This document shows positions 7,951 to 63,269 of a stretch of 64,000 nt of DNA, piece after piece. Source of the stretch: Candidatus Uhrbacteria bacterium (GTDB lineage Bacteria; Patescibacteriota; Patescibacteriia; UBA9934); assembly GCA_903848275.1 (NCBI GenBank), contig CAINGB010000001.1:1175-65174 (forward strand), in the 5' to 3' direction. Position 1 is the stretch's first letter. Every line of letters starts with the position of its first letter. Under the pieces are notes generated by a model. That model saw nothing but the letters and a program-made list of their open reading frames with translations, was not told the DNA's origin and did not search any database. The position numbers and the translations under genes are program-made.

Positions 7951-7983
7951 CCTGCCACGTCGGTCGCGACCGACGTGGCCTGC
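7951..7983. repeat. GC-rich perfect palindrome CCACGTCGGTCGCGACCGACGTGG with conserved flanks (copy 1 of 2)
   Basis: 34-nt identity with 53871..53904; core is a 24-bp perfect palindrome; lies in the uvrA–uvrB intergenic region. Confidence 0.8.
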
Positions 7984-10280: not shown

Positions 10281-10294
10281 ACGACTCGGTACTT

Positions 10295-11497
10295 CTACAC
10301 GGTCTCTTCGTTCTTGGACGATCGCGAGCCCACCCAGTCAGAGGCCCGCACTAGCTCCTTCTTGATCATCGCCAGATGCGACTGTCGATTCATCGGCGTA
10401 ATGTGACTCAAAGACACGCTCAGACAGACGTTGATCTCCAACAAGACTTTGTTCTTGAAGCTCTGCCCCAGCGACTCAGGCAGCGCTGCTCGCCGCTCGT
10501 GAATCGCCGTGATCCACTCATTCCACATCTCGTCCGTCACCACCGTCCGGTGCTTGACCGCATCCGATACCTCGGTCACGAGGCCCTCGAACTCGTACTG
10601 CCACACGAGCAGCTTGAAGCAGTCGATGATGTTCTTCATGAGCTGCCGCAGGAACTCCATCGCGCCGGACTGATGTCCGCGACTCTCCGGCAGAAGACTA
10701 CCGATGACGCGCGCCACCTCCTCAGCGTCACGGATGCAGTGTGCACCCGGATCCACAAATGGCCTGACCACGAACAGGTCCTGCATGGTGGCCGCCAGCA
10801 GCTTGAAGTAGTCACGCACCGTCGGCTTGAACGCCTCCTGCCACACCAAGCCGAGCTTCTGCTCGAGTTCCGGTAGCAGCCCCTTGACCTGCTCGATCAC
10901 CGAACCGATGTACTGGTCGATCACCGTGCCAAGCGACACCACAATCTGCTGGTCCGTGTCGAGCTCTGCTCCGCGCTGGGCGGTGCGGATGGCCGCCGCC
11001 GAGTAGCCCAACCGCTTGCGCGAACTCGGGCCATCACGCTTGTTGGTCTTGCGGATGAGGTCACGCGCCTTGCGCACCTGCTGGTTGTTCGTGCCAAGGA
11101 GCTCCTCCCCCTCGTCTTCGAGCAATGCCTGCAGCTTGTTGCTTAGCGCCACCAGCTCGTCATACTTGGCGAACACGTCGCCGTAGGTCGCCGCCAGACT
11201 GAGGAGTGCCAACTGGTTCAGGTCGCGCACCAAGCACAGCTGCATATTCACCCACGAGTGGATGTACATCTGCATACGCCGAGCCTTGTACGCGTTGTCC
11301 GCAGACAGCCAAAGCTGCACGTACTTGCCCTTGCGTGCCCGCATGGCCTTCATGTCCGGCCCGAACAACGTTCCTGGCTTGACCTTGTTGTCGACGTCGA
11401 CTGCCACGAGGATCTTGTTCTCAGACCCGGGCAGATAGAACCAGGTTCCGCGGTTCTCAGCTTTCGCAGTCGGCACAGTGAGTTCAAAAATCTTCAT
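10295..11497 (-). CDS. hypothetical protein in a locally GC-rich insert (no recognised domain)
   Basis: 400-aa ORF; GC visibly higher than neighbours (long GC-only antisense ORF 10376..10876 is a symptom); flanked by hairpins. Confidence 0.6.
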   Translation of the reverse strand: MKIFELTVPTAKAENRGTWFYLPGSENKILVAVDVDNKVKPGTLFGPDMKAMRARKGKYVQLWLSADNAYKARRMQMYIHSWVNMQLCLVRDLNQLALLSLAATYGDVFAKYDELVALSNKLQALLEDEGEELLGTNNQQVRKARDLIRKTNKRDGPSSRKRLGYSAAAIRTAQRGAELDTDQQIVVSLGTVIDQYIGSVIEQVKGLLPELEQKLGLVWQEAFKPTVRDYFKLLAATMQDLFVVRPFVDPGAHCIRDAEEVARVIGSLLPESRGHQSGAMEFLRQLMKNIIDCFKLLVWQYEFEGLVTEVSDAVKHRTVVTDEMWNEWITAIHERRAALPESLGQSFKNKVLLEINVCLSVSLSHITPMNRQSHLAMIKKELVRASDWVGSRSSKNEETV

Positions 11498-12898: not shown

Positions 12899-14464
12899 TC
12901 ACCTAACCGAAATTCTATATAACGCCTCATCTTCGATATTATCGACCAGCTCAATCTTCAAGCCCATCTTTCCTAGCTTATCATCATTTAAATAATTAAG
13001 GTCGACTTCCGGAAACGGAATCCCGAAGTAATACAACGGCGCCAGCTTAACAGCTATCGGCATGGCTGCATACGTCGCCTCACTTCGTAACGGCTGAATT
13101 ACATGTCGTTCTGGCCACAAAAACTTATCAGCTCGGTCCACAACAATAATCGAATCCACCTCGGTCTCCGCCAATATCGTATCCCTCTTCGCTGCACTTG
13201 CCAGCAGAACTTGCCGAGTTTTAAGCAAGCCATCACTACCACCGAAAACCAACGAGCTCGACAATAATGCAACTACCAACAACCCTCCTTTCAGCCGCCA
13301 TCTCAACAACCCTTTAGTCGCAAACAACGTTGCCAACACAAACAGCGGCAACCAATAGCGCAAATGCGAGTCCCCAATTGTAATCGCCGTCGGATCTGGA
13401 TTGTCATTAAACGACCAACTACCGTACAACACGCCCAGCCACGCAGCCAAAATCAACGTGCCAAGCGCCAGCTTGCGCCAGCCTCCTTTTTCGCGCAACG
13501 ACACATAAATCCCAATCGCCGCCAAAATACTCAGCCACCAGAATAAACCAATCCCATAATGCCAAACATTTTTAATGATCGCTTTCGGGTGCACACCAAA
13601 CGGTAACAGCAAATTGATAATCGAACGTTGAATAGGCAGGGTCACCGTCCCCCGCCCCTGTAAATTTTCATGGTCAATTGCCTCCGCGGACACATGACTA
13701 TCAACCACCGTATACCCCGTCGACCACGGTTGCTGATACAAAGCAACATTGAGACTCGCATTCACAGCAATCGGCAAAGCAAAACCGAGCAGCAACATCA
13801 GCCACGGCAATTTACCAGCCACCTCTTTGCGATACGTAATCGAGATCGCCATTACTACTGGCAATATCCAAACTAATTCCGACAAGCGAAAAAACGCCGC
13901 CAAGCCAATGCCCAAGCCAGCCAGCAAAAACTCCAGCCAAGCCTTCTTCAACGGCTTCACCACCACCAACCACACCGCGAAAATAAGAAAGCAAACAAAC
14001 CCCACGTTCGGCATCATCGTGCGGGCCGCGTAATACCAAACCGCTGGCTGCAACGCCAACATCGTCGTCGCCACATAAGCGAATATCTCATTCTTCGTTA
14101 CCTTTTTCACCGTGGCGAACCAAGCGAATAAAGCTAACATCAACAAAATCGGCGTCAATAATCGCAAACCAAAAGTACCAACTAAATGTCCAAACAAACC
14201 AGCTGCAAACGACAAGCCAAGAAAACTCCCCGGCACAATAAACTCGCCCACCGCTAACGCACTCCGCGGGTGCACCAGCCCTCTCAACTGCGCTGTCACG
14301 TCGTCATGGATAGCTAGACTACCAGTCTGCAACATTGAGTTTGCAAACGTATAATTAGCATTCTCATCCGGCGAAGTAAAAGACGCCGACACCCCAACCG
14401 TCAACCATGACGTCGAACAGAAATAAATGACGAGCGCTACAATAATTACAATCTTCTTTCGCAT
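12899..14464 (-). CDS. GT-C fold glycosyltransferase-like polytopic membrane protein (ArnT/PMT-like)
   Basis: More than 10 TM helices; N-terminal loop with DE-containing motif; start moved to MRKKIVIIV to avoid a 139-bp overlap; contains an in-frame REP. Confidence 0.45.
   Translation of the reverse strand: MRKKIVIIVALVIYFCSTSWLTVGVSASFTSPDENANYTFANSMLQTGSLAIHDDVTAQLRGLVHPRSALAVGEFIVPGSFLGLSFAAGLFGHLVGTFGLRLLTPILLMLALFAWFATVKKVTKNEIFAYVATTMLALQPAVWYYAARTMMPNVGFVCFLIFAVWLVVVKPLKKAWLEFLLAGLGIGLAAFFRLSELVWILPVVMAISITYRKEVAGKLPWLMLLLGFALPIAVNASLNVALYQQPWSTGYTVVDSHVSAEAIDHENLQGRGTVTLPIQRSIINLLLPFGVHPKAIIKNVWHYGIGLFWWLSILAAIGIYVSLREKGGWRKLALGTLILAAWLGVLYGSWSFNDNPDPTAITIGDSHLRYWLPLFVLATLFATKGLLRWRLKGGLLVVALLSSSLVFGGSDGLLKTRQVLLASAAKRDTILAETEVDSIIVVDRADKFLWPERHVIQPLRSEATYAAMPIAVKLAPLYYFGIPFPEVDLNYLNDDKLGKMGLKIELVDNIEDEALYRISVR
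13631..13656 (+). repeat. REP hairpin AATAGGCAGGGTCACCGTCCCCCGCC (copy inside a CDS, in-frame)
   Basis: Matches the REPs flanking the RAYT gene at 17190 and 17522; translated as QGRGTVTLPIQ in the minus-strand CDS. Confidence 0.75.
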
Positions 14465-14466
14465 AC

Positions 14467-15045
14467 TTACAAAGAGTAGGTCAAAGCAGCGATCGCGCCA
14501 AGCACCGTCGCCACAACTAACGCCCATTGACCAACCAAGATCAAAACCGGAATCTGCAACAAAATAGCTAACAGCAGTAGCGTCATCGATAACACCTGAA
14601 GACACAGCTTACTCTTTCCCCACAAATTAGCCATCATGACTGCTTTATTAGTTCGCGCCCTCAAGCCCCAAAGAATAAATGGCAAAAGATCGCAACCAAT
14701 CGCTGCAACTACAACAATTGGGTTAAAATAACGTAAAGCAAAAACCAGAATTACCGAACCAATCAGCAGTCTATCAGCCACCGGATCGAAAACAATACCC
14801 CATGGGGTAATTTGCCCACGAACCCGAGCTAAAGAACCATCCAGCATATCTGTCGACGCTGTCAGAATAAATAATGGAACACCGAAAGTTAAATTATTAG
14901 TGCCCAGTAAATAGACCACTACCGGAGTTAATACGAAACGCAAAACAGTCAGGTGATTAGGCCTGATAAAAGCTGGAATAAACGGCAAAACCAACGCTCT
15001 TAGTACGTAATCTTGCGGGAACAATTTTGCTGGGTTACGCGCCAT
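14467..15045 (-). CDS. CDP-alcohol phosphatidyltransferase family protein (PgsA-like)
   Basis: Motif DMLDGSLARVRGQITPWGIVFDPVADR (D-x2-DG-x2-AR...G-x3-D-x3-D). Confidence 0.7.
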   Translation of the reverse strand: MARNPAKLFPQDYVLRALVLPFIPAFIRPNHLTVLRFVLTPVVVYLLGTNNLTFGVPLFILTASTDMLDGSLARVRGQITPWGIVFDPVADRLLIGSVILVFALRYFNPIVVVAAIGCDLLPFILWGLRARTNKAVMMANLWGKSKLCLQVLSMTLLLLAILLQIPVLILVGQWALVVATVLGAIAALTYSL

Positions 15046-15100: not shown

Positions 15101-17170
15101 ATGGAAAAAATATTCCTTCGAGCTACAATTGCGCTGAGCTTAGTCACAATTCTCGGCAGCCTACTCTACTACACCCTTCCAGTCACCTGGCTCGGCTTAT
15201 TCCTGATCCTCATCTTTTCTGTCTTGGTCGCCATCCTTCTCCCCTTAAAATCCCCCGAATCAAGTCAACCAAAGCTCAGCTTTGGGCGCAAACCAGAAAT
15301 CACGCTGAGCGCGATAATAATCCTTGCGCTAACCGCCTGGTGGACCGTCGTCTTCCCCATCAGTATCACCACCGCCGTTCGCTCCCCTTGGGGCATTGTT
15401 CCCGTTTTCTCCCTAGCAGCTCTCGCGATCGCAATCTTTAGTTTGATTGTATTAACTTCTTCTAGCCGGGTGACGCGGAGGGAGGCCCCTGCCGGGCGCG
15501 CAGCTTGCGAGCATCTGGCGGGGTCCGCAGTGGCAGGACCCGGCCGTAGAGACGATATAATAACCACCGCTCTCTTTATCATTACTTTATTTTCAGCGAT
15601 CTCCATGGCCGCCGTCATCTACCCAATTGGCTTCGGTTTCGACCCCTTTCTCCATCGCGCTACAGTCGAGCACATCGCTACCTTCGGCACCATTACGCCT
15701 AAGCCGTTGTACTACATCGGCCAATACGCCCTCGAGCTCACCCTGCATCTCATCGGCGGCTTACAACTTATCCTCGTCGATCGTTTCCTCCTCCCTCTTC
15801 TCGCCGCCATTTTACTCACCGGCAGCACTCTCCTCGGTCTTGCATCTTACACTAAAATCAAGTCAAATTTCGTCCTCGCTGGCCTCTTACTCTTTCCCCT
15901 CAGCACCCTCATCTCAACAACTCCCCAAGGCCTAGCCTACGTTTTCTGCGCCAGCGCCATCATGCTTTCCTTCACTTCATCACTCATCCCCGCTGGCCTC
16001 TTAGCCCTCGCCGCCGCTATCACTCACCCTATCGCCGGCATTCCCGCCGTCATCTTCGTCTTCACCTCTTATCTCCTCCGTCGAGCCACAAATCGCACAT
16101 ACCAAAAAATAATCTTGGCCTGCGCTTTCATTCTCAGCACCCTCGCCATCCCCACTCTCTTCGCCCTCCAAGCCGCCAAATCCGGCCTCGCCCTCTCTCT
16201 CAACCTGGCTAACCTTTTTGACCTCTCCCGCTGGCACTCTCTCGGCCTCACCTCATTCTTCAGTAATCACTTTAACACCTGGTACGACGCCCTTTACTTG
16301 GTCATCGATAACCTCTTCCTCATCACCATAATCTTCGCTCTCATCGGCTTCTTTTATCACTTAACATCGAAATCCTTTACATTGGGTGACGCGGGGCAGG
16401 TCCCCTGCGCGGCGCGCAACGCAGTGAGCACCGAGGAGGGTGGCCAAGCGGCAGGACCCAATGAACTCAGGCACCCAAATCTCTTATTACTCTTACTCAC
16501 CTCAAGCGCCATGTTCCTGAGCTTCGTCGTCCTCTCCCTCCTCTTCAACTTCGACTTCCTAATCTCCTACGAACGAAGCGACTACGCCTTACGCTGCCTC
16601 ACTTTAGCGCATATTTTCTTAATCCCTCTAGCCGCCTTAGGCCTCGTCACCATCAATAACTTCTTACAAAAAAAACCACTGGCCCTCCGCCTCACCTTCT
16701 TCGTCCTCCTCACCGTTATCGCTATCGGCAACATTTACGGCGCCTATCCTCGCCACGACAACTACGCTACTAGTGCCGGCTTCAACACCTCGCAGGCCGA
16801 CGTCGACGCAGTGCAAAAAATCGACACTCTGGCGGACGGTCAAGACTACATCGTTCTTGCCAACCAAGCCACTTCTGCCGCCGCTATCAGTCTCTACGGC
16901 TTCAAAAAATATTATCACGACGACATCTTCTACTACCCAATCCCAACTGGCGGCCCGCTCTATCAAAAATATCTAACCATGGTCAACAACACGCCGAGCC
17001 TCGACACTATTCATGAAGCTATGGACTTAGCTGGCGTCAATCTGGCCTACTTCGCCATTAGCGATTATTGGTGGGACGCTAAAAACATTATCTCTCAAAG
17101 CAAACTCCTCACCAACTCATGGTTCACGACTCCCGACGGCTCCGTCACGGTCTTTGAATTCCGCCGCTAA
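15101..17170 (+). CDS. large polytopic membrane protein (envelope/glycosylation-type) carrying two in-frame GC-rich repeat insertions
   Basis: 690 aa, many TM helices plus C-terminal soluble domain; two hydrophilic about 28-aa loops are encoded exactly by repeat copies A and B. Confidence 0.55.
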   Translation: MEKIFLRATIALSLVTILGSLLYYTLPVTWLGLFLILIFSVLVAILLPLKSPESSQPKLSFGRKPEITLSAIIILALTAWWTVVFPISITTAVRSPWGIVPVFSLAALAIAIFSLIVLTSSSRVTRREAPAGRAACEHLAGSAVAGPGRRDDIITTALFIITLFSAISMAAVIYPIGFGFDPFLHRATVEHIATFGTITPKPLYYIGQYALELTLHLIGGLQLILVDRFLLPLLAAILLTGSTLLGLASYTKIKSNFVLAGLLLFPLSTLISTTPQGLAYVFCASAIMLSFTSSLIPAGLLALAAAITHPIAGIPAVIFVFTSYLLRRATNRTYQKIILACAFILSTLAIPTLFALQAAKSGLALSLNLANLFDLSRWHSLGLTSFFSNHFNTWYDALYLVIDNLFLITIIFALIGFFYHLTSKSFTLGDAGQVPCAARNAVSTEEGGQAAGPNELRHPNLLLLLLTSSAMFLSFVVLSLLFNFDFLISYERSDYALRCLTLAHIFLIPLAALGLVTINNFLQKKPLALRLTFFVLLTVIAIGNIYGAYPRHDNYATSAGFNTSQADVDAVQKIDTLADGQDYIVLANQATSAAAISLYGFKKYYHDDIFYYPIPTGGPLYQKYLTMVNNTPSLDTIHEAMDLAGVNLAYFAISDYWWDAKNIISQSKLLTNSWFTTPDGSVTVFEFRR
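15465..15544 (+). repeat. GC-rich element, copy A (GCCGGGTGACGCGGAGGGAGGCCCCTG...GGCAGGACCCGGC), in-frame in a CDS
   Basis: Conserved termini GGGTGACGCG...GGCAGGACCC with inverted flanks; subfamily shared with copy E. Confidence 0.8.
16382..16461 (+). repeat. GC-rich element, copy B, in-frame in a CDS
   Basis: Interior nearly identical to copies C and D (GGTCCCCTGC...GAGGAGGGTGGCCAAGCGGCAGGACCC). Confidence 0.8.
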
Positions 17171-17504
17171 TTAATAATAGTAATTTCTCAATAGGCGGGG
17201 TCACCGTCCCCCGCCGTAATTCCCTTTCTGAAAACCACCGAGCCATAAAACCCTTTACCCCCTTCATATAATCACTAAATGTTTTTGTTCCCTGTGGCCA
17301 GATAATACAATGGAAATGATCGGGCATTACCACGGCTGCAATCAGTAAAACGTTATATTGCTTCGAATAGTATTTCAACTCCTTTATCAGCATCAATGCA
17401 GCTTCTTCGTCTATAAACAATGGCAATCGATTAAACGTAGTGGATGAGATAAAATGTGGCAAATTCAGCTCAGTCCACAAAGCATGAGTTCGTGCAGAAC
17501 GCAT
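17145..17504 (-). CDS. REP-associated tyrosine transposase (RAYT, IS200/IS605 TnpA-like Y1 HUH)
   Basis: HUH motif VMPDHFHCII, N-terminal pattern LPHFISSTTFNRLPLF, Tyr in SDYMKGV; flanked by inverted REP hairpins; ORF 3' end reads through a REP. Confidence 0.7.
   Translation of the reverse strand: MRSARTHALWTELNLPHFISSTTFNRLPLFIDEEAALMLIKELKYYSKQYNVLLIAAVVMPDHFHCIIWPQGTKTFSDYMKGVKGFMARWFSERELRRGTVTPPIEKLLLLISGGIQRP
17190..17215 (+). repeat. REP hairpin AATAGGCGGGGTCACCGTCCCCCGCC (3' flank of RAYT)
   Basis: Stem GGCGGGG/CCCCGCC; seen directly. Confidence 0.8.
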
Positions 17505-17521
17505 AATAGATTATTTATCAT

Positions 17522-17547
17522 GGCGGGGGACGGTGACCCCGCCTATT
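17522..17547 (-). repeat. REP hairpin, inverted copy (5' flank of RAYT)
   Basis: Reverse complement of the 17190 copy, including the AATA flank. Confidence 0.8.
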
Positions 17548-17566
17548 AATTAGCTCAATAACCAAG

Positions 17567-22757: not shown

Positions 22758-23026
22758 ATTTTTTACTAAAGGCTGGGTAGTGACGTAGCTGGGTAGCGGG
22801 GTAGATTAAACTATTTAGCAGCCTGAGCCTTGTAGGAGAGAGCAACTGGCAGGGTGGTCCTCTGACGACGCCAAGACCGGCCCGTGTCTATCGCTCCGAT
22901 CAATCACGAGGCTCGGCAAGATAGCGAGAGACCGGTCGCCATTCCTCCACCAACTCAGTTAAGAAATGTGGCGGTCGCGTCTGCAGCTAGGAAGAGGACT
23001 ACTCTGCCGGTTGCGAGCAACGAACA

Positions 23027-25143: not shown

Positions 25144-25401
25144 CTAATTATTAGCCCAAGTATAGCACAGCTTAATCTTCTCCGCCCTCGTCATCTTCTT
25201 CAGCGCATTCTCCCGCAAATGCGCCGCACTCTCGGACTCCTGCGCCTCGACGAAAACTAATTTAAGCGGCCCTCGCCCCCTAGTATACTTCGCCCCTTTC
25301 CCTAACCTGTGTTTCTCTACTCTGGCCTGCACATCGGTGGCAATCCCGGTGTATAGCGTCCCGTCACCGCACTGCAGAATGTAGACAAACCAGTCGGACA
25401 T
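25144..25401 (-). CDS. GIY-YIG nuclease-domain small protein (UPF0213-like)
   Basis: WFVYILQCGDGTLYTGIATDVQARVEKH...GAKYTRGRGPLKLV. Confidence 0.75.
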   Translation of the reverse strand: MSDWFVYILQCGDGTLYTGIATDVQARVEKHRLGKGAKYTRGRGPLKLVFVEAQESESAAHLRENALKKMTRAEKIKLCYTWANN

Positions 25402-25455
25402 AAAAATAGTTGGTAGTTAGTAGTCGGTAGTTGGTAGCTTAAAAATTTTATTGAG

Positions 25456-25605
25456 CCCAAAAGACCAAGTAGCGAGGGGCAGGCCTAACATCCTTTAGTC
25501 GGGTGACGCGAGCCAGGTCCCCTGCTGGGCGCGGAACGCCTAGTGAGCACCCAGGAGGGTGGCCAAGCGGCAGGACCCGACGAACCTTCGCACCCCAAGC
25601 CTTGG
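25456..25605 (+). repeat. GC-rich element, copy C, extended 150-nt form
   Basis: Near-identical over about 150 nt to 29166..29316; core 25498..25581. Confidence 0.85.
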
Positions 25606-25649: not shown

Positions 25650-26192
25650 TTAAATCCGCAACTTCCGCAGCTCTCCCCGCAACTTCTTCGCTTCCGGCAA
25701 CATCTCCAGCATCCTCCGCCAAAAAGCCGGCCCGTGGTTATGCTCAGCAATATGGCACAACTCATGCACGACCAAATAATCCTGCAACTCCGGTGGCAAC
25801 ATGACAACCCTGTAATTAAACGACAAATTTCCTACTCTATTACAACTTCCCCATCTGCTCTGCTGATTGCGAATGCTCAGCTTCCCAATCGTAAAGCCGT
25901 AATGCAGATTAAAATATTGCAGCCGAGCCTCAACCAACCTTAGCGCCGCCTGCTTATTCTTCTTGTACTCAACCGTCGTCCCCTCGCCAATCCTCTTAGC
26001 TGACGTCAATTTCATCTTCATTCTCACCTCCTCAATCCAAGCCATTTTACTCTTCACTAACCCCGCAATCATCCGCAAGCTCACCCTCAATGGCGCCGAA
26101 ACCCTCACCTCGCCCGACCCATCAATCCGTATTCGCACACTCCGCGACCGCCGGTAGCGCTTAATTTTAAAACCGACTTCATCGCTAACCAT
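25650..26192 (-). CDS. DUF45 / M48-family (YgjP-like) zinc metallopeptidase
   Basis: HELCHIAEHNH zinc-binding motif; N-terminal pattern typical of DUF45. Confidence 0.75.
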   Translation of the reverse strand: MVSDEVGFKIKRYRRSRSVRIRIDGSGEVRVSAPLRVSLRMIAGLVKSKMAWIEEVRMKMKLTSAKRIGEGTTVEYKKNKQAALRLVEARLQYFNLHYGFTIGKLSIRNQQSRWGSCNRVGNLSFNYRVVMLPPELQDYLVVHELCHIAEHNHGPAFWRRMLEMLPEAKKLRGELRKLRI

Positions 26193-29131: not shown

Positions 29132-29165
29132 ATTTTATTAGAAGTAGTCTAACCATTTTTAGCAG

Positions 29166-29316
29166 CCCAAAAGGCCAAGTAGCGAGGGGCAGGCCTAACC
29201 TCTTGTAGTCGGGTGACGCGAGCCAGGTCCCCTGCTGGGCGCGGAACGCCTAGTGAGCACCCAGGAGGGTGGCCAAGCGGCAGGACCCGAAGAACTTTCG
29301 CACCCCAAGCCTTGGT
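29166..29316 (+). repeat. GC-rich element, copy D, extended 150-nt form
   Basis: Near-identical to copy C; spurious ORFs 29149..29415 and 29213..29434 derive from it. Confidence 0.85.
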
Positions 29317-30416: not shown

Positions 30417-31088
30417 ATGTCATATACTCAACAAACCAAAAATACAGCTATTAAACTACGTCGACGTGGACTTTCTATTTTAGTAATTGCCGCAAAATTA
30501 CAAATAGCTAAAAGCACCATCTCGCTTTGGGTTAAAGACGTCCCTCTCCCGCTAGAACTTCGTGAGAAATTACAACAAAACTTCGTTAACGGTCGTGCTA
30601 AAGGTTCGGCTATCGGTAAAGCTAAACGAGCCATCGTACGAGAGAACATGACCAAAGCCACAAGTTTAGACGTTGCTCGACTTCCTGATACCAAATCCTT
30701 TTGGCGTCTCGTCGCCGCCCTTCTTTATTGGTGCGAAGGTGGCAAACAAAGTCTCTCCAGCGGAATCAATTTCAGTAACTCAGACCCAGAACTAATGAAG
30801 ACCTTTATCACCGCTCTGCGCCATGGCTTCACTCTAGACGAGTCAAAATTCCGCGTTTTACTTCATTTACACGAATATCATGACGAAGCAAAACAACAAA
30901 CCTTCTGGTCTAAAGTCACTGGCATCCCCATCACCCAATTCCAAAAAACCTATCAAAAGCCCCATACCGGCAAACGTAAACACCTCAATTATGAGGGTTG
31001 TGCATCACTTCGCTACTATAATGCTGGTATTGTCAAAAACCTGATTATCCTATACAGTCAGTTCGCAAAACACAGCGAAGGGACGTAG
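30417..31088 (+). CDS. HTH-domain protein
   Basis: N-terminal HTH (RRRGLSILVIAAKLQIAKSTISLWV); stop codon lies inside tRNA-Trp. Confidence 0.4.
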   Translation: MSYTQQTKNTAIKLRRRGLSILVIAAKLQIAKSTISLWVKDVPLPLELREKLQQNFVNGRAKGSAIGKAKRAIVRENMTKATSLDVARLPDTKSFWRLVAALLYWCEGGKQSLSSGINFSNSDPELMKTFITALRHGFTLDESKFRVLLHLHEYHDEAKQQTFWSKVTGIPITQFQKTYQKPHTGKRKHLNYEGCASLRYYNAGIVKNLIILYSQFAKHSEGT

Positions 31089-31153
31089 TGAAATGGCTAT
31101 CACAAATCTCTCCAAAAGATTTATTCAGGGTTCGAATCCCTGCGTCCCTGCCA
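31079..31153 (+). tRNA. tRNA-Trp (anticodon CCA), CCA encoded
   Basis: Manual fold: perfect acceptor AGGGACG/CGTCCCT, D-stem GTGA/TCAC, anticodon loop CTCCAAA, T-arm CAGGG-TTCGAAT-CCCTG. Confidence 0.9.
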
Positions 31154-34935: not shown

Positions 34936-36156
34936 ATGAGTAAGATTGATCAATTGATTAGTGAATTATGCCCAGAGGGAGTGGAGTTTAAAACGATAGG
35001 AGAATTTGTTGAATTTGCAAAAGGAGCAAGTATTCCTCGAGCCAGAACCTCGGTTGATTATGAAGTTCCGTACCTACATTACGGCGATGTCTACAAGTTG
35101 TATAAAAAAGAGGTCGATCTTGATGTTGTTTATAATTCAATCATTAAGGTCTCATCACATGAGAGAGTTCGCGAAAATCAATATATTCAGACGGGAGATA
35201 TCGTTTATAACCTAACCTCAGAAACGAAAGAGGATTTGGGTAAGGCTATCGTGGTTATCAATAATAGCGGACGGAAATTTATTGCAGGAACCGAAACAAC
35301 TGTAATGAAAATTACACGGAAGGATCTTGTCGATCCATGTTTTTTGAACTATGTGTTGATGACGGAGTGGTATTTGCAGGAGTTCAGACAACATACAACT
35401 GGCACCAAAGTCTACCGTGTTCATCCCCGTGCCATTGCAAAAATCTCGATCCCTCTTCCGCCACTTGTGATTCAAAGAGAGATCGTTAACATTCTTGATA
35501 GGTTCACAGAGCTGGAGACAGAGCTGGAGACAGAGCTGGAGACAGAGCTGGAGACAAGAATGATGCAATACGACTACTATCGTTCAGAGGTTCTGACATC
35601 ATCTGATTCAGAGAGAGCGATATCTGACGTCTGTGGGATTAGTAGAGGAAGAGTGATGTCGAGGGATTATCTCAGAGCGAACGTGGGCGAATATCCGGTT
35701 TATTCTTCGCAAACTGCCAACGATGGAATTTTCGGATACATCGATACTTACGATTACGAAGGTGAATACGTAACCTGGACAACAGACGGAGCGAACGCAG
35801 GATCAATTTTTTACCGCAATGGAAAATTTAGTATCACGAATGTCTGCGGGCTCTTAAAAGTTACCGCTGATGATGTTAATGCAAAATTTCTCACGTATAT
35901 CCTCGGTACTGTTTCAAAAAAATATGTTAGTGCGGGCATGGGAAACCCGAAGCTGATGAGCAACGTTATGGCTAATATCAAGGTGCGAATTCCCACCTTG
36001 ATCGAACAAGAGCGTATCGTAACCTTACTCGACAAATTCGATACCCTAGTGAACGATATCTCCATTGGTCTCCCAGCTGAACTCGCGGCACGTCGAAAAC
36101 AGTATGAGTACTATCGGAGCAAGCTCCTGACTTTCAAAGAATATGCCAAAAGCTAA
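34936..36156 (+). CDS. hsdS: type I R-M specificity subunit HsdS (two target-recognition domains, repeat-bearing central region)
   Basis: Position in hsdM-S-R; overlapping stop/start; conserved central and C-terminal helices; (ELET)4 repeat. Confidence 0.8.
   Translation: MSKIDQLISELCPEGVEFKTIGEFVEFAKGASIPRARTSVDYEVPYLHYGDVYKLYKKEVDLDVVYNSIIKVSSHERVRENQYIQTGDIVYNLTSETKEDLGKAIVVINNSGRKFIAGTETTVMKITRKDLVDPCFLNYVLMTEWYLQEFRQHTTGTKVYRVHPRAIAKISIPLPPLVIQREIVNILDRFTELETELETELETELETRMMQYDYYRSEVLTSSDSERAISDVCGISRGRVMSRDYLRANVGEYPVYSSQTANDGIFGYIDTYDYEGEYVTWTTDGANAGSIFYRNGKFSITNVCGLLKVTADDVNAKFLTYILGTVSKKYVSAGMGNPKLMSNVMANIKVRIPTLIEQERIVTLLDKFDTLVNDISIGLPAELAARRKQYEYYRSKLLTFKEYAKS
35509..35556 (+). 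repeat. 4 x 12-bp perfect tandem repeat GAGCTGGAGACA inside hsdS, encoding (ELET)4
   Basis: Seen directly. Confidence 0.95.
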
Positions 36157-53870: not shown

Positions 53871-53904
53871 CCTGCCACGTCGGTCGCGACCGACGTGGCC
53901 TGCC
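53871..53904. repeat. GC-rich perfect palindrome element (copy 2 of 2)
   Basis: 34-nt identity with 7951..7983. Confidence 0.8.
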
Positions 53905-56506: not shown

Positions 56507-56546
56507 TATATCATGTTATACTTTCTCTAGTTTTAATCTACTGAAT

Positions 56547-56990
56547 ATGTTCGGACTCAAACGCTCCGCTGTCAAAATTAAAGCCTGGCTCAGTCACCGT
56601 CCAATACTCTATGCTTTAATCGGCGGTATCGGCGTTGTCCTCTTTTGGCGCGGCGTCTGGCACACCGTGGATTACCTCATGCTGCTCACTCAACATTCTA
56701 TCGCCCACACTTCTATCGACTTAACCACCAATCTCTGGTGGGACGGTCCGTTATCACTCGTTGTCGGATCTTTCATCCTCCTCAGTACCAGCGCCTTTGT
56801 CTTCAGCCTCATTGGTAACGAAATAATTATCTCTGGCTTACAAGCTGAAAAACGTCAACTTGCTAAAACCGGCAGCATCATGCACAGCGAATCACAGGAA
56901 ATAGATGAGCTCCGCCAGGCTTTTGCTAATATTTCATCCAAGCTCGAACATCTGGAGCGTGATGTCAACAAGAGCAATAACAAAAAATAA
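56547..56990 (+). CDS. membrane protein with C-terminal coiled coil
   Basis: 2–3 TM then charged helical tail. Confidence 0.4.
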   Translation: MFGLKRSAVKIKAWLSHRPILYALIGGIGVVLFWRGVWHTVDYLMLLTQHSIAHTSIDLTTNLWWDGPLSLVVGSFILLSTSAFVFSLIGNEIIISGLQAEKRQLAKTGSIMHSESQEIDELRQAFANISSKLEHLERDVNKSNNKK

Positions 56991-56991: not shown

Positions 56992-57396
56992 ATGACTCAT
57001 ATCCCCTCCTTCCACACTAACATCATCCAAGCTGTCACTACTAACGAATATTTCAGGCGCGTGCTTTTTACCGGGGCAAAATCACAACTCGTTGTCATGA
57101 ACATTCCCCCGGGCGGTGAAGTCGGCCAAGAAACTCACCAGCACGTCGAGCAAACACTGTACTTCGAATCTGGTACCGGTCAGGCTATTCTCGACGGCCT
57201 ATCAACACCTATCGTGCCTGGCGACGTCGTGGTTGTTACCCCTGGCACGCAACATAACTTTCTTAATACCGGCACAACTCCACTCAAAATTTTCACCACC
57301 TATTCACCACCAAATCACCTCGACGGTCGCATTCAAGCCACTAAAGCCGACGCCGACGCGGACCGAGCCGACGAAAACTTCGGCGAGGCTCAGTAA
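56992..57396 (+). CDS. cupin-domain protein
   Basis: Cupin motifs GGEVGQETHQHVEQTLY and PGTQHNFLNTG; start at MTHIPSF just after the previous stop. Confidence 0.65.
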   Translation: MTHIPSFHTNIIQAVTTNEYFRRVLFTGAKSQLVVMNIPPGGEVGQETHQHVEQTLYFESGTGQAILDGLSTPIVPGDVVVVTPGTQHNFLNTGTTPLKIFTTYSPPNHLDGRIQATKADADADRADENFGEAQ

Positions 57397-57442
57397 AAAA
57401 TATGGTACACTTAAGGTAGTTAATTTTATTTCTACCTTGAGT

Positions 57443-59947
57443 ATGTCCAACCCACACTATCTAGCTAAAGTTTTTCGCACAATTGCCGCAACGGCCTTCG
57501 TCATCATCGGCGGGGCCTTTTGCTTCTCAGTGAACACACCTCACGCTTTAGCTGCTCTTGGCGACGGAGCTACCAGTGCAATCCACCTTCTTGATAGTGG
57601 CGAAGACGGCAAGCCGGATACCATTACCTTCAGCATCGCCAACCCGAACGGCGAAAGCTGGGCCGCTGTTGGTTCCTCGCCGTATGGCGTTAGTGTCACT
57701 CAAAATGGTGCCGCTATCACCGTAACTGGTGTCACTCGTACCTCGGGCGCCACCGCCAACCCAATCACCATCTCCGTTGCCCTCGATACTTCAGATTCCG
57801 ATCTTCAGTATAATACCGACGGTGTCGTCCTTTACCCCATTGAATTAATTTACACTCGTGTTGGTGGTGGGGTCGCTTGCACTAACTGCCTTCGCGACAA
57901 CGTCGATGAAGAAATGAACGCAATAGCCACCGGCGACACCAACGCCACCAACACAGAAGTAGACCTCATGAAGCCCGTCGTCATGACTATGTACGAAAAC
58001 GCGGCCTATACCCGCAACCTGACTTTTAATACTGTTGATATAGAATACTCAGAGCGCATGCATCTTTCATTGGATAACGACGGCGGAACAGATGTCTCTT
58101 ACGACGGCACAGCGACTGGAACTTCGACAGCTACGGCCGGTTCTATGACAGTCGCTCGTACTATTGCCGGTTTTGGCACTTGGGCTGCGCTGAACGGTGG
58201 CGACATGGCTATTTCCACCGTTGGTGGCAACGAAATAATCGCCTATCAAAATGCTTTTATTATCGTCATGAACGAAGTGGATAGTTCTTATTTCTCAGCT
58301 GGCAGCACTGCCCCAACTACCCCTGTTTTCACCCCCTCATATTCACCACTCACCGTCTTTGATGCTGCTGGCAATGGCGTCTCCACTAATACCAAAACCA
58401 TGTTCGAAAACGTCCCTTGGGACGTCACTGCGCCGACACTCGACAACACCTATTCTTGCTATAGCACCGTCAACGGTAAGGTAAATCGCGTTCAATTGTC
58501 CTTCAACGAAAATATTGACGACTACACTTTCGACACCAGCGTTTTCGAAGTGGACAACGATAGTACCAACAACGGTATCGGCGAGGAGACTCCCGTCTCT
58601 TTCAACACTGCCACCGCTGGTTGCGACGGCACGGCCGACGACACCGACTACGACGACGAAAAAATCCGCCTAGATCTCACCACCGGTATCACTGGCACCG
58701 ACAAGGCCTACGTGCACTATGCGGCTAATGGCAGCTACCATATACGTGATGGGGCTGGTAACCTCATGCTCGCCGGTTCCGCTCTCGGCACGGAAAATGA
58801 TCGAGCCGCGCCAATTGTTATGTCTACCACCCCAACTGCAGGCAGCAACATTCTCAACACCAGCCCGATCGTCCTCAACTTCAGCGAAGCGATGGACTCC
58901 ACTGCCGGTCACTTCGTCTACACTTTCCCAGGTGAACCAACTCTCACTCCAGTCTGGACTTCTGGCGACACCGTCCTCACTCTTAACGGTACCAAAATTC
59001 ACGGCAGTAAAACATTAACCGTCACAGCTGGTCCTGACGCAGCCGCTCAAGCTTTTGGTACTTTCCTCGCGACTAGCAACGCCTCGTTCAGCTTCACGGT
59101 TCTCGGTGGCTCCAACACTACTGCCACTCCAGCTGTAATCACCTACGCTCTCACCCTCACCTCCCCAACTGCTAGTTTTTCCTATCAAGCTGGTACTAAC
59201 ATTCCGATCACCTGGACCAGCAATCAAACCAATAGCACCGCTATGACTGCTATTAATCTCGCCTACTCAACAGACTCTGGCTTAACCTTCACCACTATCG
59301 CCAACAACGAAGTCAATGACGGCAGCTACACCTGGACGGCACCAAACATTAGTTCCAACAACGTCACTCTCAAAATCACCGGCACCGATCTCGTCACCAC
59401 CCTCGCTACCAACACCGGAGCCGCTTTCACCATCTCCTCCAGCGCATCTACACCAAACTCTGACACCACAGTTCCTGTCGCGCCAACTCTAGCCGCTGGC
59501 AGCTTCGTCAAAAGCTCAGCCAACAGCGCCGTCTACTACATCACCGCCGACGGTCATCGCCTCCCCTTTATCAACGAACAGGTCTACGCCACTTACGCCA
59601 GCGATTTTAGTAGCGTCGCCACTCTCACAGATATCGACCTCTCCGCCTACCCACTCGGTGCTCCAGTCGCGCCTAAACCAGGTACCGTGCTCGTCAAAAT
59701 CCAATCCACGGCCAACACCTATGCCGTGACCGGCACACCAGAGGCATCAGTTCTCCGCCTTATTACGAGCGAAGAACTTGCCGCCAGTCTCTACGGCAGT
59801 AACTGGGCCGACTACGTCATTGATCTCCCACCAACCATGTGGCCACATTTGACCATCGGCACCCAACTCGCCAACACCAGCGACTTAATCGTCGACCGTT
59901 CCACCCTCCTCCGCCGCGTTGATCTTTTTCTCACTATCCTCAGCTAA
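57443..59947 (+). CDS. large secreted Thr/Ser/Asn/Ala-rich surface protein (Ig-like repeats)
   Basis: Signal peptide MSNPHYLAKVFRTIAATAFVIIGGAFCFSVNTPHALA; low-complexity beta-rich repeats. Confidence 0.6.
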   Translation: MSNPHYLAKVFRTIAATAFVIIGGAFCFSVNTPHALAALGDGATSAIHLLDSGEDGKPDTITFSIANPNGESWAAVGSSPYGVSVTQNGAAITVTGVTRTSGATANPITISVALDTSDSDLQYNTDGVVLYPIELIYTRVGGGVACTNCLRDNVDEEMNAIATGDTNATNTEVDLMKPVVMTMYENAAYTRNLTFNTVDIEYSERMHLSLDNDGGTDVSYDGTATGTSTATAGSMTVARTIAGFGTWAALNGGDMAISTVGGNEIIAYQNAFIIVMNEVDSSYFSAGSTAPTTPVFTPSYSPLTVFDAAGNGVSTNTKTMFENVPWDVTAPTLDNTYSCYSTVNGKVNRVQLSFNENIDDYTFDTSVFEVDNDSTNNGIGEETPVSFNTATAGCDGTADDTDYDDEKIRLDLTTGITGTDKAYVHYAANGSYHIRDGAGNLMLAGSALGTENDRAAPIVMSTTPTAGSNILNTSPIVLNFSEAMDSTAGHFVYTFPGEPTLTPVWTSGDTVLTLNGTKIHGSKTLTVTAGPDAAAQAFGTFLATSNASFSFTVLGGSNTTATPAVITYALTLTSPTASFSYQAGTNIPITWTSNQTNSTAMTAINLAYSTDSGLTFTTIANNEVNDGSYTWTAPNISSNNVTLKITGTDLVTTLATNTGAAFTISSSASTPNSDTTVPVAPTLAAGSFVKSSANSAVYYITADGHRLPFINEQVYATYASDFSSVATLTDIDLSAYPLGAPVAPKPGTVLVKIQSTANTYAVTGTPEASVLRLITSEELAASLYGSNWADYVIDLPPTMWPHLTIGTQLANTSDLIVDRSTLLRRVDLFLTILS

Positions 59948-59996
59948 CATTCGTTAGTTCTCATTCAATCATCGCACCAATCTAGGCCCTACGTCA

Positions 59997-60090
59997 CAGC
60001 GGGTGGCGGCGAGCAGGTGCCCTGCGGGTCGCGACGTTGCAGCCTCTGCAGCTAGCGACTCGGAGGGTGCGAGCCAGACAGGACCCGCTG
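59997..60090 (+). repeat. GC-rich element, divergent copy F
   Basis: Ends CAGCGGGTG...GGACCCGCTG; same orientation as the other copies. Confidence 0.6.
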
Positions 60091-60114
60091 CCAGCAGAAA
60101 TTAATACCAATCTT

Positions 60115-60410: not shown

Positions 60411-62228
60411 ATGACTTCTATCCTTACCGAGCCAAAACGCGACTACATCCTACTCATTCTCATCGCCTTAACATTCGGTGCAGATTTACTTTTACACGAA
60501 CCGCTCACGCTCTTCATCATCGCAGGCGTTGCTGTCATTCCAACTTTCTGGAACTCTGCCCTCGCCGCTCGTCACGGCAAAATCACTATCGACACTTTCA
60601 ACACCTTCGCCGTCATCGTTTCTTTTGCGACTGGCGAGGCTTACTCTGCTGGGTTCATCGCCCTCATGTTGACGTCCGCCCGCATTCTCGACTGGTACAC
60701 CGAGTCACGCACTCATCATGCTATTGAAGAGTTACTCCGCCTCAAACCAACCACCGCTTTCCTCGAGCAAGGCCAAATTGTAACCGAGGTCGATGCTGAC
60801 ACCATCAAAACCGGCGACGTGGTGCTCGTCAAAAGTGGTGCTCGAATTCCTGTCGACGGCGTTGTCACCGACGGTTCAGCCCACGTCAACGAGGCTATCG
60901 TCACTGGCGAGTCAGAACCAATCGAGAAGAATGTCGGCGATCGTGTGATTAGCTCAACCCTAGTCGACATTGGTGTCCTGCATGTCAGAGCCACCCAAGT
61001 CGGCAAAGACTCCACCCTCGAGCGCATGGCCACCCTCATGCATACGGCCAGCTTACACAAATCCACTACCGAAAAATTAGCGGATCGTTTTGCTACCATC
61101 TTCTTACCCGTCGTCGGCCTCCTTGGTGCTCTCACCTACGCCATTACCCGCGATCTCACCATGACCGCCGCCCTCTTCCTCATTGCCTGTGCCGACGATA
61201 TGGCCGTCGCCATTCCTCTCGCCATGACCGCCTCACTCGGCCAAGCTGCCAAACGTGGTGTCATCGTTAAAGGCGGACAAACCCTCGACGCCTTAAGCCG
61301 CATGAAAACGCTTGTCCTCGACAAAACCGGCACGCTCACCTTCGGCAACCTAGCAATTCGTGCCGTCCATCTGGCGCCCAACGTCGACGAGAATCATTTC
61401 TGGACAGTCCTCGCCAGCGCCGAAAAATATTCGGAACACCCAGCCGGTCGTACCGCCTACAAAGAAGGCTTACGTCGACTGGGCACTGTGGCTGACCCCA
61501 CCGATTTTAAACTCTACAAGGGCAAAGGTGTGACTGCGCAAGTTGGCACCGAAACCATCGTTGCCGGCACTGAGCTGCTCTTCGCCGAACTCGGACTCCC
61601 CATCCCTACCGTACCCGAAGACGCCCTCGGCTCCGTCTTTTGGGTAGCTTGCAACGGCCAACACATTGGCTCTCTTGAAGTCGCCGACATTCCGCGTCCC
61701 GAAGCCGCCGCTAGCCTAGCTAAACTTCGCACTCTCGGCGTCACGCGCATCATCATGCTAACCGGTGATAACGAACGCGTCGCTAAAAACGTCGCTGAAT
61801 TACTCGGCATCACCGAATTCCGTTCTCGCATGACGCCAGAAGGTAAAATGCTCGCCCTGGAAGAGCTTTTTGCTACCGGTCCTGTCGGCATGGTCGGCGA
61901 CGGCGTAAATGACGCTCCAGCCTTAGCCCGCGCTGATATTGGCATTGCTATGGGCGGTGGTGGTGCCGCCGTTTCCGTGGAAGCTGCTGACGTCGTCATC
62001 ATGACCGACAACCTCGCACGTTTGCCGGAAATGATGGAACTCGGCCGCAGCACACTAAGCGTCGTTAAAGGCGACATTGTCATCTGGGTCATCTCAAATC
62101 TTGTCGGTTTCACCCTTGTTTTCACTGGAATCGCCGGTCCTGCTCTAGCCGCCTTCTACAACTTCGCCACCGACTTCTTTCCACTCTTCAACTCCAGCCG
62201 CCTCTTTAAAACAAAACGAGGGCCTTAA
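60411..62228 (+). CDS. cation-transporting P-type ATPase (short form)
   Basis: TGES, DKTGTLT, GDGVNDAPAL motifs. Confidence 0.85.
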   Translation: MTSILTEPKRDYILLILIALTFGADLLLHEPLTLFIIAGVAVIPTFWNSALAARHGKITIDTFNTFAVIVSFATGEAYSAGFIALMLTSARILDWYTESRTHHAIEELLRLKPTTAFLEQGQIVTEVDADTIKTGDVVLVKSGARIPVDGVVTDGSAHVNEAIVTGESEPIEKNVGDRVISSTLVDIGVLHVRATQVGKDSTLERMATLMHTASLHKSTTEKLADRFATIFLPVVGLLGALTYAITRDLTMTAALFLIACADDMAVAIPLAMTASLGQAAKRGVIVKGGQTLDALSRMKTLVLDKTGTLTFGNLAIRAVHLAPNVDENHFWTVLASAEKYSEHPAGRTAYKEGLRRLGTVADPTDFKLYKGKGVTAQVGTETIVAGTELLFAELGLPIPTVPEDALGSVFWVACNGQHIGSLEVADIPRPEAAASLAKLRTLGVTRIIMLTGDNERVAKNVAELLGITEFRSRMTPEGKMLALEELFATGPVGMVGDGVNDAPALARADIGIAMGGGGAAVSVEAADVVIMTDNLARLPEMMELGRSTLSVVKGDIVIWVISNLVGFTLVFTGIAGPALAAFYNFATDFFPLFNSSRLFKTKRGP

Positions 62229-62243
62229 AATAAACTTCTTTTA

Positions 62244-62324
62244 GTCGGGTGACGCGGAGGGAGGCCCCTGGGCGGCGCGCAGCTTGCGAGCACCGAACGG
62301 GGTCCGCAGTCGGCAGGACCCGAC
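62244..62324 (+). repeat. GC-rich element, copy E
   Basis: GTCGGGTGACGCGGAGGGAGGCCCCTG...GGCAGGACCCGAC; closest to copy A. Confidence 0.8.
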
Positions 62325-62369
62325 GAAGTCTTTTACTCTAATGCCCGAGTCTAAAACATTGATCAATTT

Positions 62370-63269
62370 ATGTCCCAAGTCCTCTTCATCGGCGCTGGCA
62401 AAATCGGCACTGCCCTAGCCCACGTCATCAATGACCGTGCTGCCATCGATCTCTGGGATCAAGACCCAACTCAGGCTCCCAACATGAAGCCTTTGGTCGA
62501 GAGTGTCCCTTTAGCTGACGTCATTTTTCTTTGCACTCCTTCCTGGACCATCCGCGCTATCATCGAGCAAATAATACCATTCTTACGCCCTATTACAGTT
62601 ATAGTTCTGTTAGCCAAAGGTCTTGAAGCAGAAACACAAAACACCATGGACACTGTGCTCGCCAATCTCCTGCCTGCCGTTCAACCGTGGGGCCTTCTCG
62701 GCGGTCCGCTATTAGCCGACGAACTAACCGACGAGTTGCCAAGCATTGGCGTTTTTGCTTCTGCTTCACGTCCAACATATCTCGAAATAAATAAACTTTT
62801 CCTAGGTACCAACGTCCGCCTCGAATACAGCACCGATCCTCACACCATCGCTCTCGCCGCCGTCCTTAAAAATATCTATGCCGTTATTCTCGGTCTCGCC
62901 GCGGGCCTCGGTTGGGGCTACAACGGCCAAGGCTGGTTGGCAGCTCGTGCGCTCACCGAAATAACCAACATCATCCAACAGCTTAATGGCGACGCAATTC
63001 TCGTAGCTGGCTCAGCTGGTGCTGGTGATTTTCTCGCCACCGCCATGAGTCCAGACTCTCACAACCGCACCGCCGGCATCGAGATCGCTAAAACGGGTCG
63101 CTGCATCACTACCAATGAAGGCTGTCGTTCTCTCCCACCTATCATCGCTCTACTCAACAATCAGCTCGATCAATTTCCACTCTTGTTCGCTCTCGATCAA
63201 ATCGTCAATCAACACGCCGCCGCAGCAGCCATTTTCCATGGTTTATTAATAGCACCTGAAATAAAATAA
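62370..63269 (+). CDS. gpsA: NAD(P)H-dependent glycerol-3-phosphate dehydrogenase
   Basis: FIGAGKIGTALA Rossmann, AKGLEAET, AAVLKNIYAVILG, GDFLATAMSPDSHNRTAG. Confidence 0.7.
   Translation: MSQVLFIGAGKIGTALAHVINDRAAIDLWDQDPTQAPNMKPLVESVPLADVIFLCTPSWTIRAIIEQIIPFLRPITVIVLLAKGLEAETQNTMDTVLANLLPAVQPWGLLGGPLLADELTDELPSIGVFASASRPTYLEINKLFLGTNVRLEYSTDPHTIALAAVLKNIYAVILGLAAGLGWGYNGQGWLAARALTEITNIIQQLNGDAILVAGSAGAGDFLATAMSPDSHNRTAGIEIAKTGRCITTNEGCRSLPPIIALLNNQLDQFPLLFALDQIVNQHAAAAAIFHGLLIAPEIK

Follow-up and report, generated by a model that had tools for sequence, protein, structure and literature searches.

Phylum-spanning hairpin repeats of about 80 nt with probable in-frame insertions in a membrane-protein gene of Candidatus Uhrbacteria

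The locus considered here raises the question of how two GC-rich segments of about 80 nt come to lie within one uninterrupted membrane-protein gene and to what kind of element they belong. The gene (positions 15101 to 17170) is located in a stretch of 64,000 nt from a Candidatus Uhrbacteria genome (contig CAINGB010000001.1, positions 1,175 to 65,174 of the forward strand), which was analyzed in full and is called the window in the following. The original prediction, which was made from the letters of the DNA, held that the two segments, here termed copies A and B, are repeats inserted in frame in the manner of Rickettsia palindromic elements (RPEs) and Correia-like MITEs (miniature transposable elements with inverted repeats). 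The positions given for both copies agree with ours, the quoted translations are correct, and the open reading frame (ORF), which opens from 15080 and whose ATG at 15101 is the start agreeing with the orthologues P0002 and P0003, is unbroken through both copies. Two details had to be corrected. The gene had been described as AT-rich, but its measured GC content is ~50% with a strong C skew, and A and B are translated in different frames: GTG-ACG-CGG in copy A (residues ~123 to 150, RVTRREAPAGRAACEHLAGSAVAGPGRR) and GGT-GAC-GCG in copy B (residues ~429 to 453, GDAGQVPCAARNAVSTEEGGQAAGP).

An alignment of 20 orthologues showed that, apart from the window protein, only P0002 has loop A, which L117/P0003, P0004, and most orthologues lack. 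Loop B is shared by the window protein, P0002, and P0003, has left a remnant in P0005, and is absent from P0004 and from P0006 onwards. In the more distant orthologues (P0004, P0006 to P0031, and others), helix is joined straight to helix without loops A and B; P0008 and P0016 carry other inserts, in another loop. A codon-level alignment with the syntenic relatives L117 and L118 made the ends of the element DNA visible at filled sites, and site A was found to be empty in L117. The 3′ flank of copy A, GGCcgTAGAG, is an imperfect inverted copy of its 5′ flank and replaces host codons of the relatives, which suggests that stems can grow by template switching. Since most of the aligned orthologues lack both loops, A and B are secondary insertions and neither ancestral parts of the protein nor boundaries between genes; the ORF is collinear with single-gene orthologues and, therefore, does not consist of several genes. 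Judged at the level of the reading frame, it is very probable that a repeat was inserted secondarily in frame and is read through.

The host protein matched no Pfam or NCBIfam family, and its homologues in Candidatus Uhrbacteria and other Patescibacteria number in the hundreds. The AlphaFold2 model has a mean predicted local distance difference test (pLDDT) score of 77.6, and residues 124 to 151 and 425 to 456, which are positioned between confidently predicted helices, have pLDDT values below 50 and no secondary structure. Consistently, both inserts fall between hydrophobic segments in the hydropathy profile, so that the predicted hydrophilic loops between transmembrane segments are borne out by both methods as disordered loops. 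A Foldseek search with the model gave a weak match to the GT-C arabinosyltransferases AftA/AftD (8if8, probability 0.99, E value 2.6e-3); an AftA/AftD-like fold, as suggested by the model, would fit the neighboring PMT_2 and CDP-alcohol phosphatidyltransferase genes.

Copies A and B are not the only ones in the window. The 5′ motif GGGTGACGCGG and the 3′ motif GCGGCAGGACCC are paired 74 to 78 nt apart, measured as whole-core length, at five places, and a sixth pair is diverged. A covariance model identified the same six copies, all on the plus strand, five of them strong (55 to 60 bits; E values 3e-10 to 3e-9) and the diverged one, copy E, with an E value of 0.006, and it detected no further window sequence above noise (Table 1). 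The likeness from copy to copy is far above chance. The elements contain 66 to 74% GC, compared with ~49 to 50% in the host gene, which is the sole plus-strand gene in the first 30 kb of the window (1 to 30 kb) and carries two of the six copies.

Table 1. Positions of the host gene, the six hairpin copies, and the transposase fragment in the window
Feature	Position	Strand	Score or basis	Details
Host gene, 689-aa polytopic membrane protein with C-terminal soluble domain	15101..17170	+	ORF, orthologues	
Copy A, subfamily 1	15462..15551	+	56.2 bits	Core 15468-15541 plus paired flanks; GGGT at 15468, ACCC end at 15541; flanks CTAGCC (15462-15467) and GGCcgTAG (15542-15549)
Copy B, subfamily 2	16380..16463	+	59.1 bits	Core 16384-16459 plus CATT/AATG flanks; GGGT at 16384, ACCC end at 16459
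Copy C, subfamily 2, long-arm form	25434..25605	+	59.8 bits	Core 25501-25578; intergenic, between GIY-YIG gene (25150-25401, -) and YgjP-like gene (25650..26192, -)
Copy D, subfamily 2, long-arm form	29144..29315	+	56.1 bits	Core 29211-29288; intergenic, both neighbors minus-strand genes
Copy E, subfamily 3	59993..60094	+	23.8 bits; z -4.55	Variant ends GGGTGGCGG...GACAGGACCC; intergenic, ~50 nt past stop of 57116..59947
Copy F, subfamily 1	62239..62329	+	55 bits	Core 62247-62321; intergenic, between 60411..62228 and 62370..63269
Truncated RAYT	17145-17504	-	Pfam Y1_Tnp 4.5e-8; NCBIfam REP_Tyr_transpos 5.9e-14	Profile positions 11-88 of 146

The family to which these copies belong spans phyla, a range beyond what the original prediction could see. 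The contigs of one genome per species were searched with the pattern GGGTGACGCG-N45-75-GGCAGGACCC, and matches were obtained at more than 116 loci, which is a lower bound, in lineages of the candidate phyla radiation (CPR), Omnitrophota, Planctomycetia, Legionellales, Solirubrobacterales, and others. The CPR hosts among the matches listed are Saccharibacteria and Roizman-, Gottesman-, Davies-, Levyi-, and Uhrbacteria; further hosts listed are Omnitrophota, Planctomycetia, Coxiella, Rickettsiella, and Legionellaceae, as well as other Gammaproteobacteria, Deltaproteobacteria, Rokubacteria, and Solirubrobacterales (Actinomycetota). A minority of matches, located in very GC-rich actinomycete DNA, look like chance, whereas the others show the full hairpin. 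Several genomes carry 3 to 6 copies on separate contigs, and a subfamily-specific scan of metagenomes returned only 11 loci from other lineages. Not a single match was present in 2.9 million viral contigs (IMG/VR). Rfam 15 contains no matching family; the only gathering-level hits in the window were three tRNAs, and with E values up to 10 only chance microRNA hairpin matches to the elements appeared. ARAGORN did not call the elements as tRNA-like genes, and full-text searches by sequence strings and by topic found no description of the element in the searchable literature. Two candidates were discarded: QMITE1/2 of Coxiella differ from the element in being longer and having direct repeats, and the Minerva preprint is unrelated to it.

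The elements adopt the plan of a long hairpin with a basal helix, a conserved internal loop, a short CGCG-type helix, and a variable GC-rich upper stem. The basal helix is composed of variable paired flanks (0 to 15 bp, median 4) and C-GGGU/ACCC-G, and in the internal loop a 5′ G-A/G stands opposite a 3′ G/A-CAGG, with a covarying A.G/G.A pair and a purine bulge. In an alignment of 80 sequences, flank pair 7:111 was paired in all 80, using the four Watson-Crick pair types and one G-U, while pairs 6:112 and 5:113 were formed in 65/80 and 60/80. For the two basal helices, 129 cells with changes on both sides were counted, compared with 44.6 in shuffles, none of 500 shuffles reaching so high a value, and all slid registers remained far below the true one. 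The CGC(G) helix covaries as well (CACG/GUG, CGGAC/GUCCG) in copies that were not picked by the search pattern. The loop bases A14 and G101 switch jointly to G and A (GGGTGA..GGCAGG versus GGGTGG..GACAGG), which indicates a non-canonical A.G pair beside the purine bulge; tandem G.A mismatches continue in many copies. An apical module, GCGCGCA-hairpin-GAGCAC, is also shared by many copies; in the GCCCGCA..GAGGAC forms, a G-C pair is replaced by C-G. Of 111 copies, 95 fold more stably as the top strand than as its complement. The two ends are not symmetric, GGGTGACGCG differing from the reverse complement GGGTCCTGCCGC by an indel (GA versus CCTGC), and some short copies carry internal deletions. 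Members of subfamily 2 in this lineage have additional arms of ~45 nt that move with the core (copies C and D, L066, and L118:17339-17500) and were never found without one. Three readings of the basal loop were considered by inspection and not adopted, namely, a K-turn, in which the 2b.2n position would be G.G, a box C/D motif, for which there are no C/D boxes, and a signal recognition particle (SRP)-like motif, for which no SRP model matched.

How the copies relate to reading frames was determined for loci with a GC content below 0.58, comprising 92 distinct copies; a copy was counted as lying within an ORF if it was spanned by one frame that stayed open for at least 150 nt to either side. 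Nineteen copies were in sense orientation in the spanning ORF, 8 were antisense, and 2 were ambiguous (27 to 29 copies, ~30%). The hosts, as identified from their sequences, include IleRS, GluRS, TypA/BipA, LepA, DnaX, MurB, L1, a UvrD-type helicase, and a PEP-utilising enzyme, and one IleRS gene of Saccharibacteria has two in-frame copies (L038, 3991 to 4082 and 4246 to 4337). In TypA of Saccharibacteria, one loop is a recurrent insertion hot spot (L076, 6177 to 6271; P0121 to P0240): proteins that are 85 to 94% identical range from 601 to 603 aa when empty to 610 to 655 aa when filled, with inserts of 0 to ~50 aa that are either fresh (GD..AGP/QDP signatures) or decayed. Through every sense copy, the upstream and downstream halves of the gene are in one frame, at any core length modulo 3, and no frame-breaking insertions were seen among the copies within ORFs. 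The conserved 5′ end carries a UGA (GGG UGA C), the frame of which is never that of the gene. With the exception of one weak candidate, L050, where a 243-nt upstream ORF is followed by a 1122-nt frame opening 2 nt past the element, no upstream ORF ending at this UGA resumes in a long frame directly past the element. The joined frames and the UGA that is never in frame therefore argue for read-through plus selection and not for excision or bypass; a reading of the GGG-UGA-C hairpin as a selenocysteine insertion sequence (SECIS) element or as a stop-codon or bypass signal was rejected on the same grounds.

Comparison of related genomes revealed that the sites are polymorphic. The junction between the GIY-YIG and YgjP-like genes measures 2 nt in L118 and ~246 nt, including copy C, in the window, the site being empty in both L117 and L118, and the spacer downstream of MazG, ~15 nt long in L117, is occupied by a long-arm copy in L118 and by another kind of GC-rich insert in the window. 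Three subfamilies coexist in the lineage, and orthologous sites hold different ones: at site A, a subfamily 1 copy in the window corresponds to a subfamily 3 copy in L118 and to an empty site in L117, whereas at site B the window holds a subfamily 2 copy and L117 one of subfamily 1, the L118 site B having decayed in place. The cores of C and D are identical, copy E is 85% identical to the site-A copy of L118, and copy F is 87% identical to A and 91% to L098; overall, copies at non-orthologous sites of different genomes are 85 to 96% identical. Host genes, in contrast, are less alike, with ~77 to 79% DNA identity among three orthologous TypA genes at 85 to 94% protein identity and 76% protein identity between the window membrane protein and its L118 orthologue. 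The element sequence is therefore either under constraint or spreading repeatedly. One pair of near-identical copies (winC and L118_x) differs at three positions, two of which together amount to a compensatory replacement of G-C by A-U.

The window insert downstream of MazG (22758 to 23026, ~260 nt) is GC-rich and intergenic and contains repeated GGTAG/GTAG motifs; GGTAG-rich sequence also precedes copy C (25402 to 25433). These sequences may represent another repeat family or the remains of a REP (repetitive extragenic palindromic sequence) array.

Target-site duplications were not detected in 117 copies, the distribution of duplication lengths being equal to that of the control. The orientation relative to neighboring genes is random (36:43). 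The orientation relative to the DNA strand is not: the top strand coincides with the C-rich strand in 13 of 13 loci with an absolute GC skew above 0.13 and in 16 of 20 at a threshold of 0.10, and the same holds for all six window copies, where the skew is -0.16 to -0.30 whichever way the gene points. The strand bias and the sense bias within ORFs are compatible only in lagging-strand genes. In the window as a whole, positions 1 to 31000 and 56000 to 64000 show a plus-strand GC skew of -0.16 to -0.30 that is independent of gene direction, and the genes from 57116 to 63269 sit on the C-rich strand.

A transposase fragment lies next to the host gene. The stretch from 17171 to 17566, absent from the relatives, is a compact insertion 3′ of this gene, and the truncated REP-associated tyrosine transposase (RAYT) found here (Table 1) lies between two perfect inverted hairpin repeats of 26 nt, AATAGGCGGGGTCACCGTCCCCCGCC (17190 to 17215 and 17522 to 17547), the C terminus of its ORF (RRGTVTPP...) being encoded by the repeat. 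It lacks the catalytic C-terminal half that is present in a 161-aa relative (L134, 10001 to 10486). This full-length RAYT is flanked on either side by the same 26-nt REP, a further copy of which lies in frame within the RAYT gene (10291 to 10316). A tblastn search over ~1 Mb of loci carrying the 80-nt element matched only the window's own fragment. The RAYT and the in-gene REP therefore indicate that Y1 enzymes and in-frame palindromes exist in this lineage, with no link to the 80-nt element. A third copy of the 26-nt REP (13631 to 13656) was observed in frame in the minus-strand PMT_2 glycosyltransferase gene 12899..14605, where it encodes GRGTVTLP, and PMT_2 orthologues show a 4-aa indel at this site. 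As far as reading frames can tell, a second, shorter palindromic repeat appears to be translated in this lineage as well.

What could account for these properties? The reading we prefer, and to which we assign a somewhat better than even chance, is that of a non-autonomous, structure-dependent mobile hairpin resembling RPEs in its behavior. Mobility and dependence on structure, taken by themselves, are probable; single-strand mobilization of the HUH type is suggested by analogy and can be proposed only tentatively. Specifically, the copies entered the membrane-protein gene after its split from most orthologues, into loops between membrane helices, and, with the frame kept and no stop codon introduced, are predicted to be translated as disordered hydrophilic loops of ~25 to 28 aa. 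Frame-breaking insertions were presumably purged by selection, a filter that intergenic copies would escape. Recognition would proceed via the folded structure and not via double-stranded inverted repeats, and spread without target duplication would occur as single-stranded nucleic acid in a replication-strand-specific manner, as in IS200/IS605 and REP/REPIN systems with their HUH Y1 enzymes; stems may lengthen afterwards through template switching. Single-strand HUH/Y1 systems such as IS200/IS605 and REP-RAYT yield replication-strand asymmetry without duplication.

Several observations weigh against a mobile hairpin of this kind. No candidate mobilizing gene was found near any of ~130 loci, no gene family recurs beside the element beyond local synteny in an analysis of neighbor enrichment, and a search of ~1 Mb of loci for an autonomous partner with the same ends found only diverged or decayed copies, none of them longer. 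The neighboring RAYT is truncated and has a different repeat as its cognate, and the covariance model detected no 80-nt element within 10 kb of the L134 RAYT. A purely DNA-level selfish element predicts neither an orientation bias nor a frame bias within genes, yet sense copies prevail (19:8, p 5e-4) despite the larger number of stop-free frames on the antisense strand (2.39 versus 1.41 per copy). Moreover, the GGT-GAC-GCG frame is favored over GTG-ACG-CG (16:3, p 0.003), a bias that may reflect avoidance of CGG/CGN arginine codons. Exact junctions are not definable from the filled and empty TypA alleles, which are only ~78% identical in DNA. Lastly, ends that are nearly letter-perfect across more than eight phyla are unusual for a transposon and more reminiscent of an RNA or DNA motif that has a function.

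The last point leads to the alternative of a structured RNA or a single-stranded DNA site with a function of its own. A conserved factor of the cell would bind or process its basal module, in a role such as RNA stability, processing, the pacing of translation, or replication, and mobility would be secondary. In favor of such a site are the near-invariance of the ends over CPR, Omnitrophota, Planctomycetia, Legionellales, and Actinomycetota, the covarying non-canonical A.G/G.A pair with its recurring tandem G.A motifs, the conserved apical module with its G-C to C-G swap, the compensatory change between near-identical copies, the preference for the top strand in folding and for the sense orientation in ORFs, and the better conservation of the elements than of their host genes. 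However, Rfam offers no match even at permissive E values, the contexts are unrelated and include both orientations to neighbors (C and D are antisense to both of theirs), copy number varies per genome, sites are polymorphic between relatives, and many copies decay in place or are internally deleted; we regard this alternative as unlikely. Also rather unlikely is a reading in which the hairpins form a previously undescribed, phylum-spanning structured class and the module C-GGGUG(A/G)...(G/A)CAGGACCC-G is the putative recognition site of a conserved machine, which would be either a new kind of mobilizing enzyme or a cellular RNA- or DNA-binding factor. If true, the sense preference in lagging-strand genes would reflect the working of this machine, and the element would be more than another selfish palindrome.

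The RAYT remnant 3′ of the host gene invites the idea that the element is a REPIN-like unit (REPINs being hairpins made of paired REPs) mobilized by the RAYT of this genome. The absence of target-site duplication and the replication-strand bias would agree with this, as would the sequence NTAG, which precedes GGGT by two bases in copies A, C, D, and F as well as in Uhrbacteria relatives and recalls the GTAG head of REPs; REPINs, as described by Bertels and Rainey in 2011, are reportedly similar in overall length and in their long-hairpin shape. The idea is nonetheless improbable, because a separate 26-nt REP, distinct from the element, flanks the RAYT, the full-length relative has that REP and no 80-nt element nearby, copies in other phyla lack NTAG, the arms do not represent a self-palindromic REP in two inverted copies, and RAYT/REP pairs are lineage-specific as opposed to the universal ends seen here. 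Spread via an RNA intermediate, the reverse transcriptase for which would be encoded at another locus, would account for the sense bias in genes, and the top-strand covariation and G-U use look RNA-like; group II intron retrotransposition also shows a replication-strand bias. We consider it very improbable, given that there is no reverse transcriptase gene near any copy, no group II or retron RNA signature in the Rfam searches, and no poly(A) or other priming signature, and that intergenic copies are often antisense to their neighbors. The chance that the loops are ancestral, that the ORF represents several genes, or that the elements are excised from the mRNA or bypassed in translation is negligible: the UGA in the conserved 5′ end followed by a hairpin superficially recalls recoding and bypass signals, but most orthologues are collinear single proteins without the loops, the halves are joined in one frame in every sense copy within an ORF, the frame of the UGA is never that of the gene, and, apart from the weak L050 case, no ORF ending at it resumes directly past the element.

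Other features of the window were noted alongside the hairpin family. A third palindromic repeat family, CCTGCCACGTCGGTCGCGACCGACGTGGC, occurs at 1576 to 1608, 7951 to 7983, and 53871 to 53903, two of the copies being identical. From ~31150 to 55300, the GC skew is ~0, compared with -0.2 to -0.3 on both sides. This region begins at a tRNA-Trp gene (31079 to 31153) and, probably representing an integrated defense island, carries genes for an OLD/Gabija-like ATPase-TOPRIM nuclease, a type I restriction-modification system (HsdM/S/R), a large serine recombinase, GmrSD, a Cas4-like/DUF2779 protein, a terminase-like protein, a ParB-methylase, and a SAVED-HNH effector. Its HsdS-like gene contains a 12-nt tandem repeat, ACAGAGCTGGAG, in ~4 to 5 copies (35506 to 35565), and no 80-nt hairpin element lies inside the region.

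In-frame palindromic repeats in essential genes have hitherto been a curiosity mostly tied to Rickettsia. Here, the same in-frame behavior is seen in CPR, Omnitrophota, Planctomycetia, Legionellales, and Actinomycetota and comes from one family with nearly invariant ends. The family would constitute a recurrent source of new protein loops in aminoacyl-tRNA synthetases, GTPases, DnaX, L1, and membrane enzymes and a natural map of insertion-tolerant sites in essential proteins. It can confound the annotation of genes and proteins in metagenome-assembled genomes, where unexplained GC-rich inserts of 25 to 35 aa may be this element, and it points to a broadly distributed system of recognition or mobilization that could be found by phylogenetic profiling.

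Among known systems, the mobile GC clusters and "byp" elements of yeast mitochondria are likewise GC-rich hairpin insertions in genes, but they are organellar, and byps are skipped by ribosomes, whereas the 80-nt element keeps the frame, which points to read-through. Correia elements, also called Neisseria miniature insertion sequences (NEMIS), and bacterial MITEs share with it the properties of small non-autonomous repeats that can form hairpins and are sometimes cotranscribed with or fused to ORFs. Correia elements are bounded by 26-bp terminal inverted repeats, duplicate a TA target, and contain a site for integration host factor (IHF). The 80-nt element has asymmetric ends, no duplication, and, in ~1 Mb of loci, no insertion sequence (IS) partner with the same ends; the lack of target-site duplications and of true inverted repeats therefore argues against a DDE-type MITE such as Correia, and this part of the original analogy fails. 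REP/REPIN-RAYT and IS200/IS605-derived elements resemble it in being defined by a hairpin, without terminal inverted repeats or duplication and with an expected strand bias, and the absence of duplications together with the replication-strand orientation is indeed a feature of the IS200/IS605 type. The 80-nt element differs from these in not being a doublet of a self-palindromic REP and in having ends kept across phyla, whereas REPs are lineage-specific, and neither the RAYT remnant nor its full-length relative is flanked by inverted copies of it. The comparison with RPEs, reportedly introduced by Ogata et al. in 2000, describes the behavior well, namely, in-frame insertions that are read through. 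Both are short palindromic repeats without a transposase of their own that occur in frame in protein genes, including essential ones, where they add surface segments, as well as between genes, and insertion in frame with translation through the repeat is seen for the 80-nt element at the level of the reading frame. RPEs are described as confined to Rickettsia, ~100 to 150 bp long, and with consensus sequences of their own; the 80-nt element has a strictly conserved asymmetric basal module and occurs in many phyla, with no match from Rickettsia among the 116 loci (the Rickettsiella match is from a gammaproteobacterium). The element is thus a palindromic repeat inserting in frame that is set apart by its conserved, structured basal module and by its cross-phylum range.

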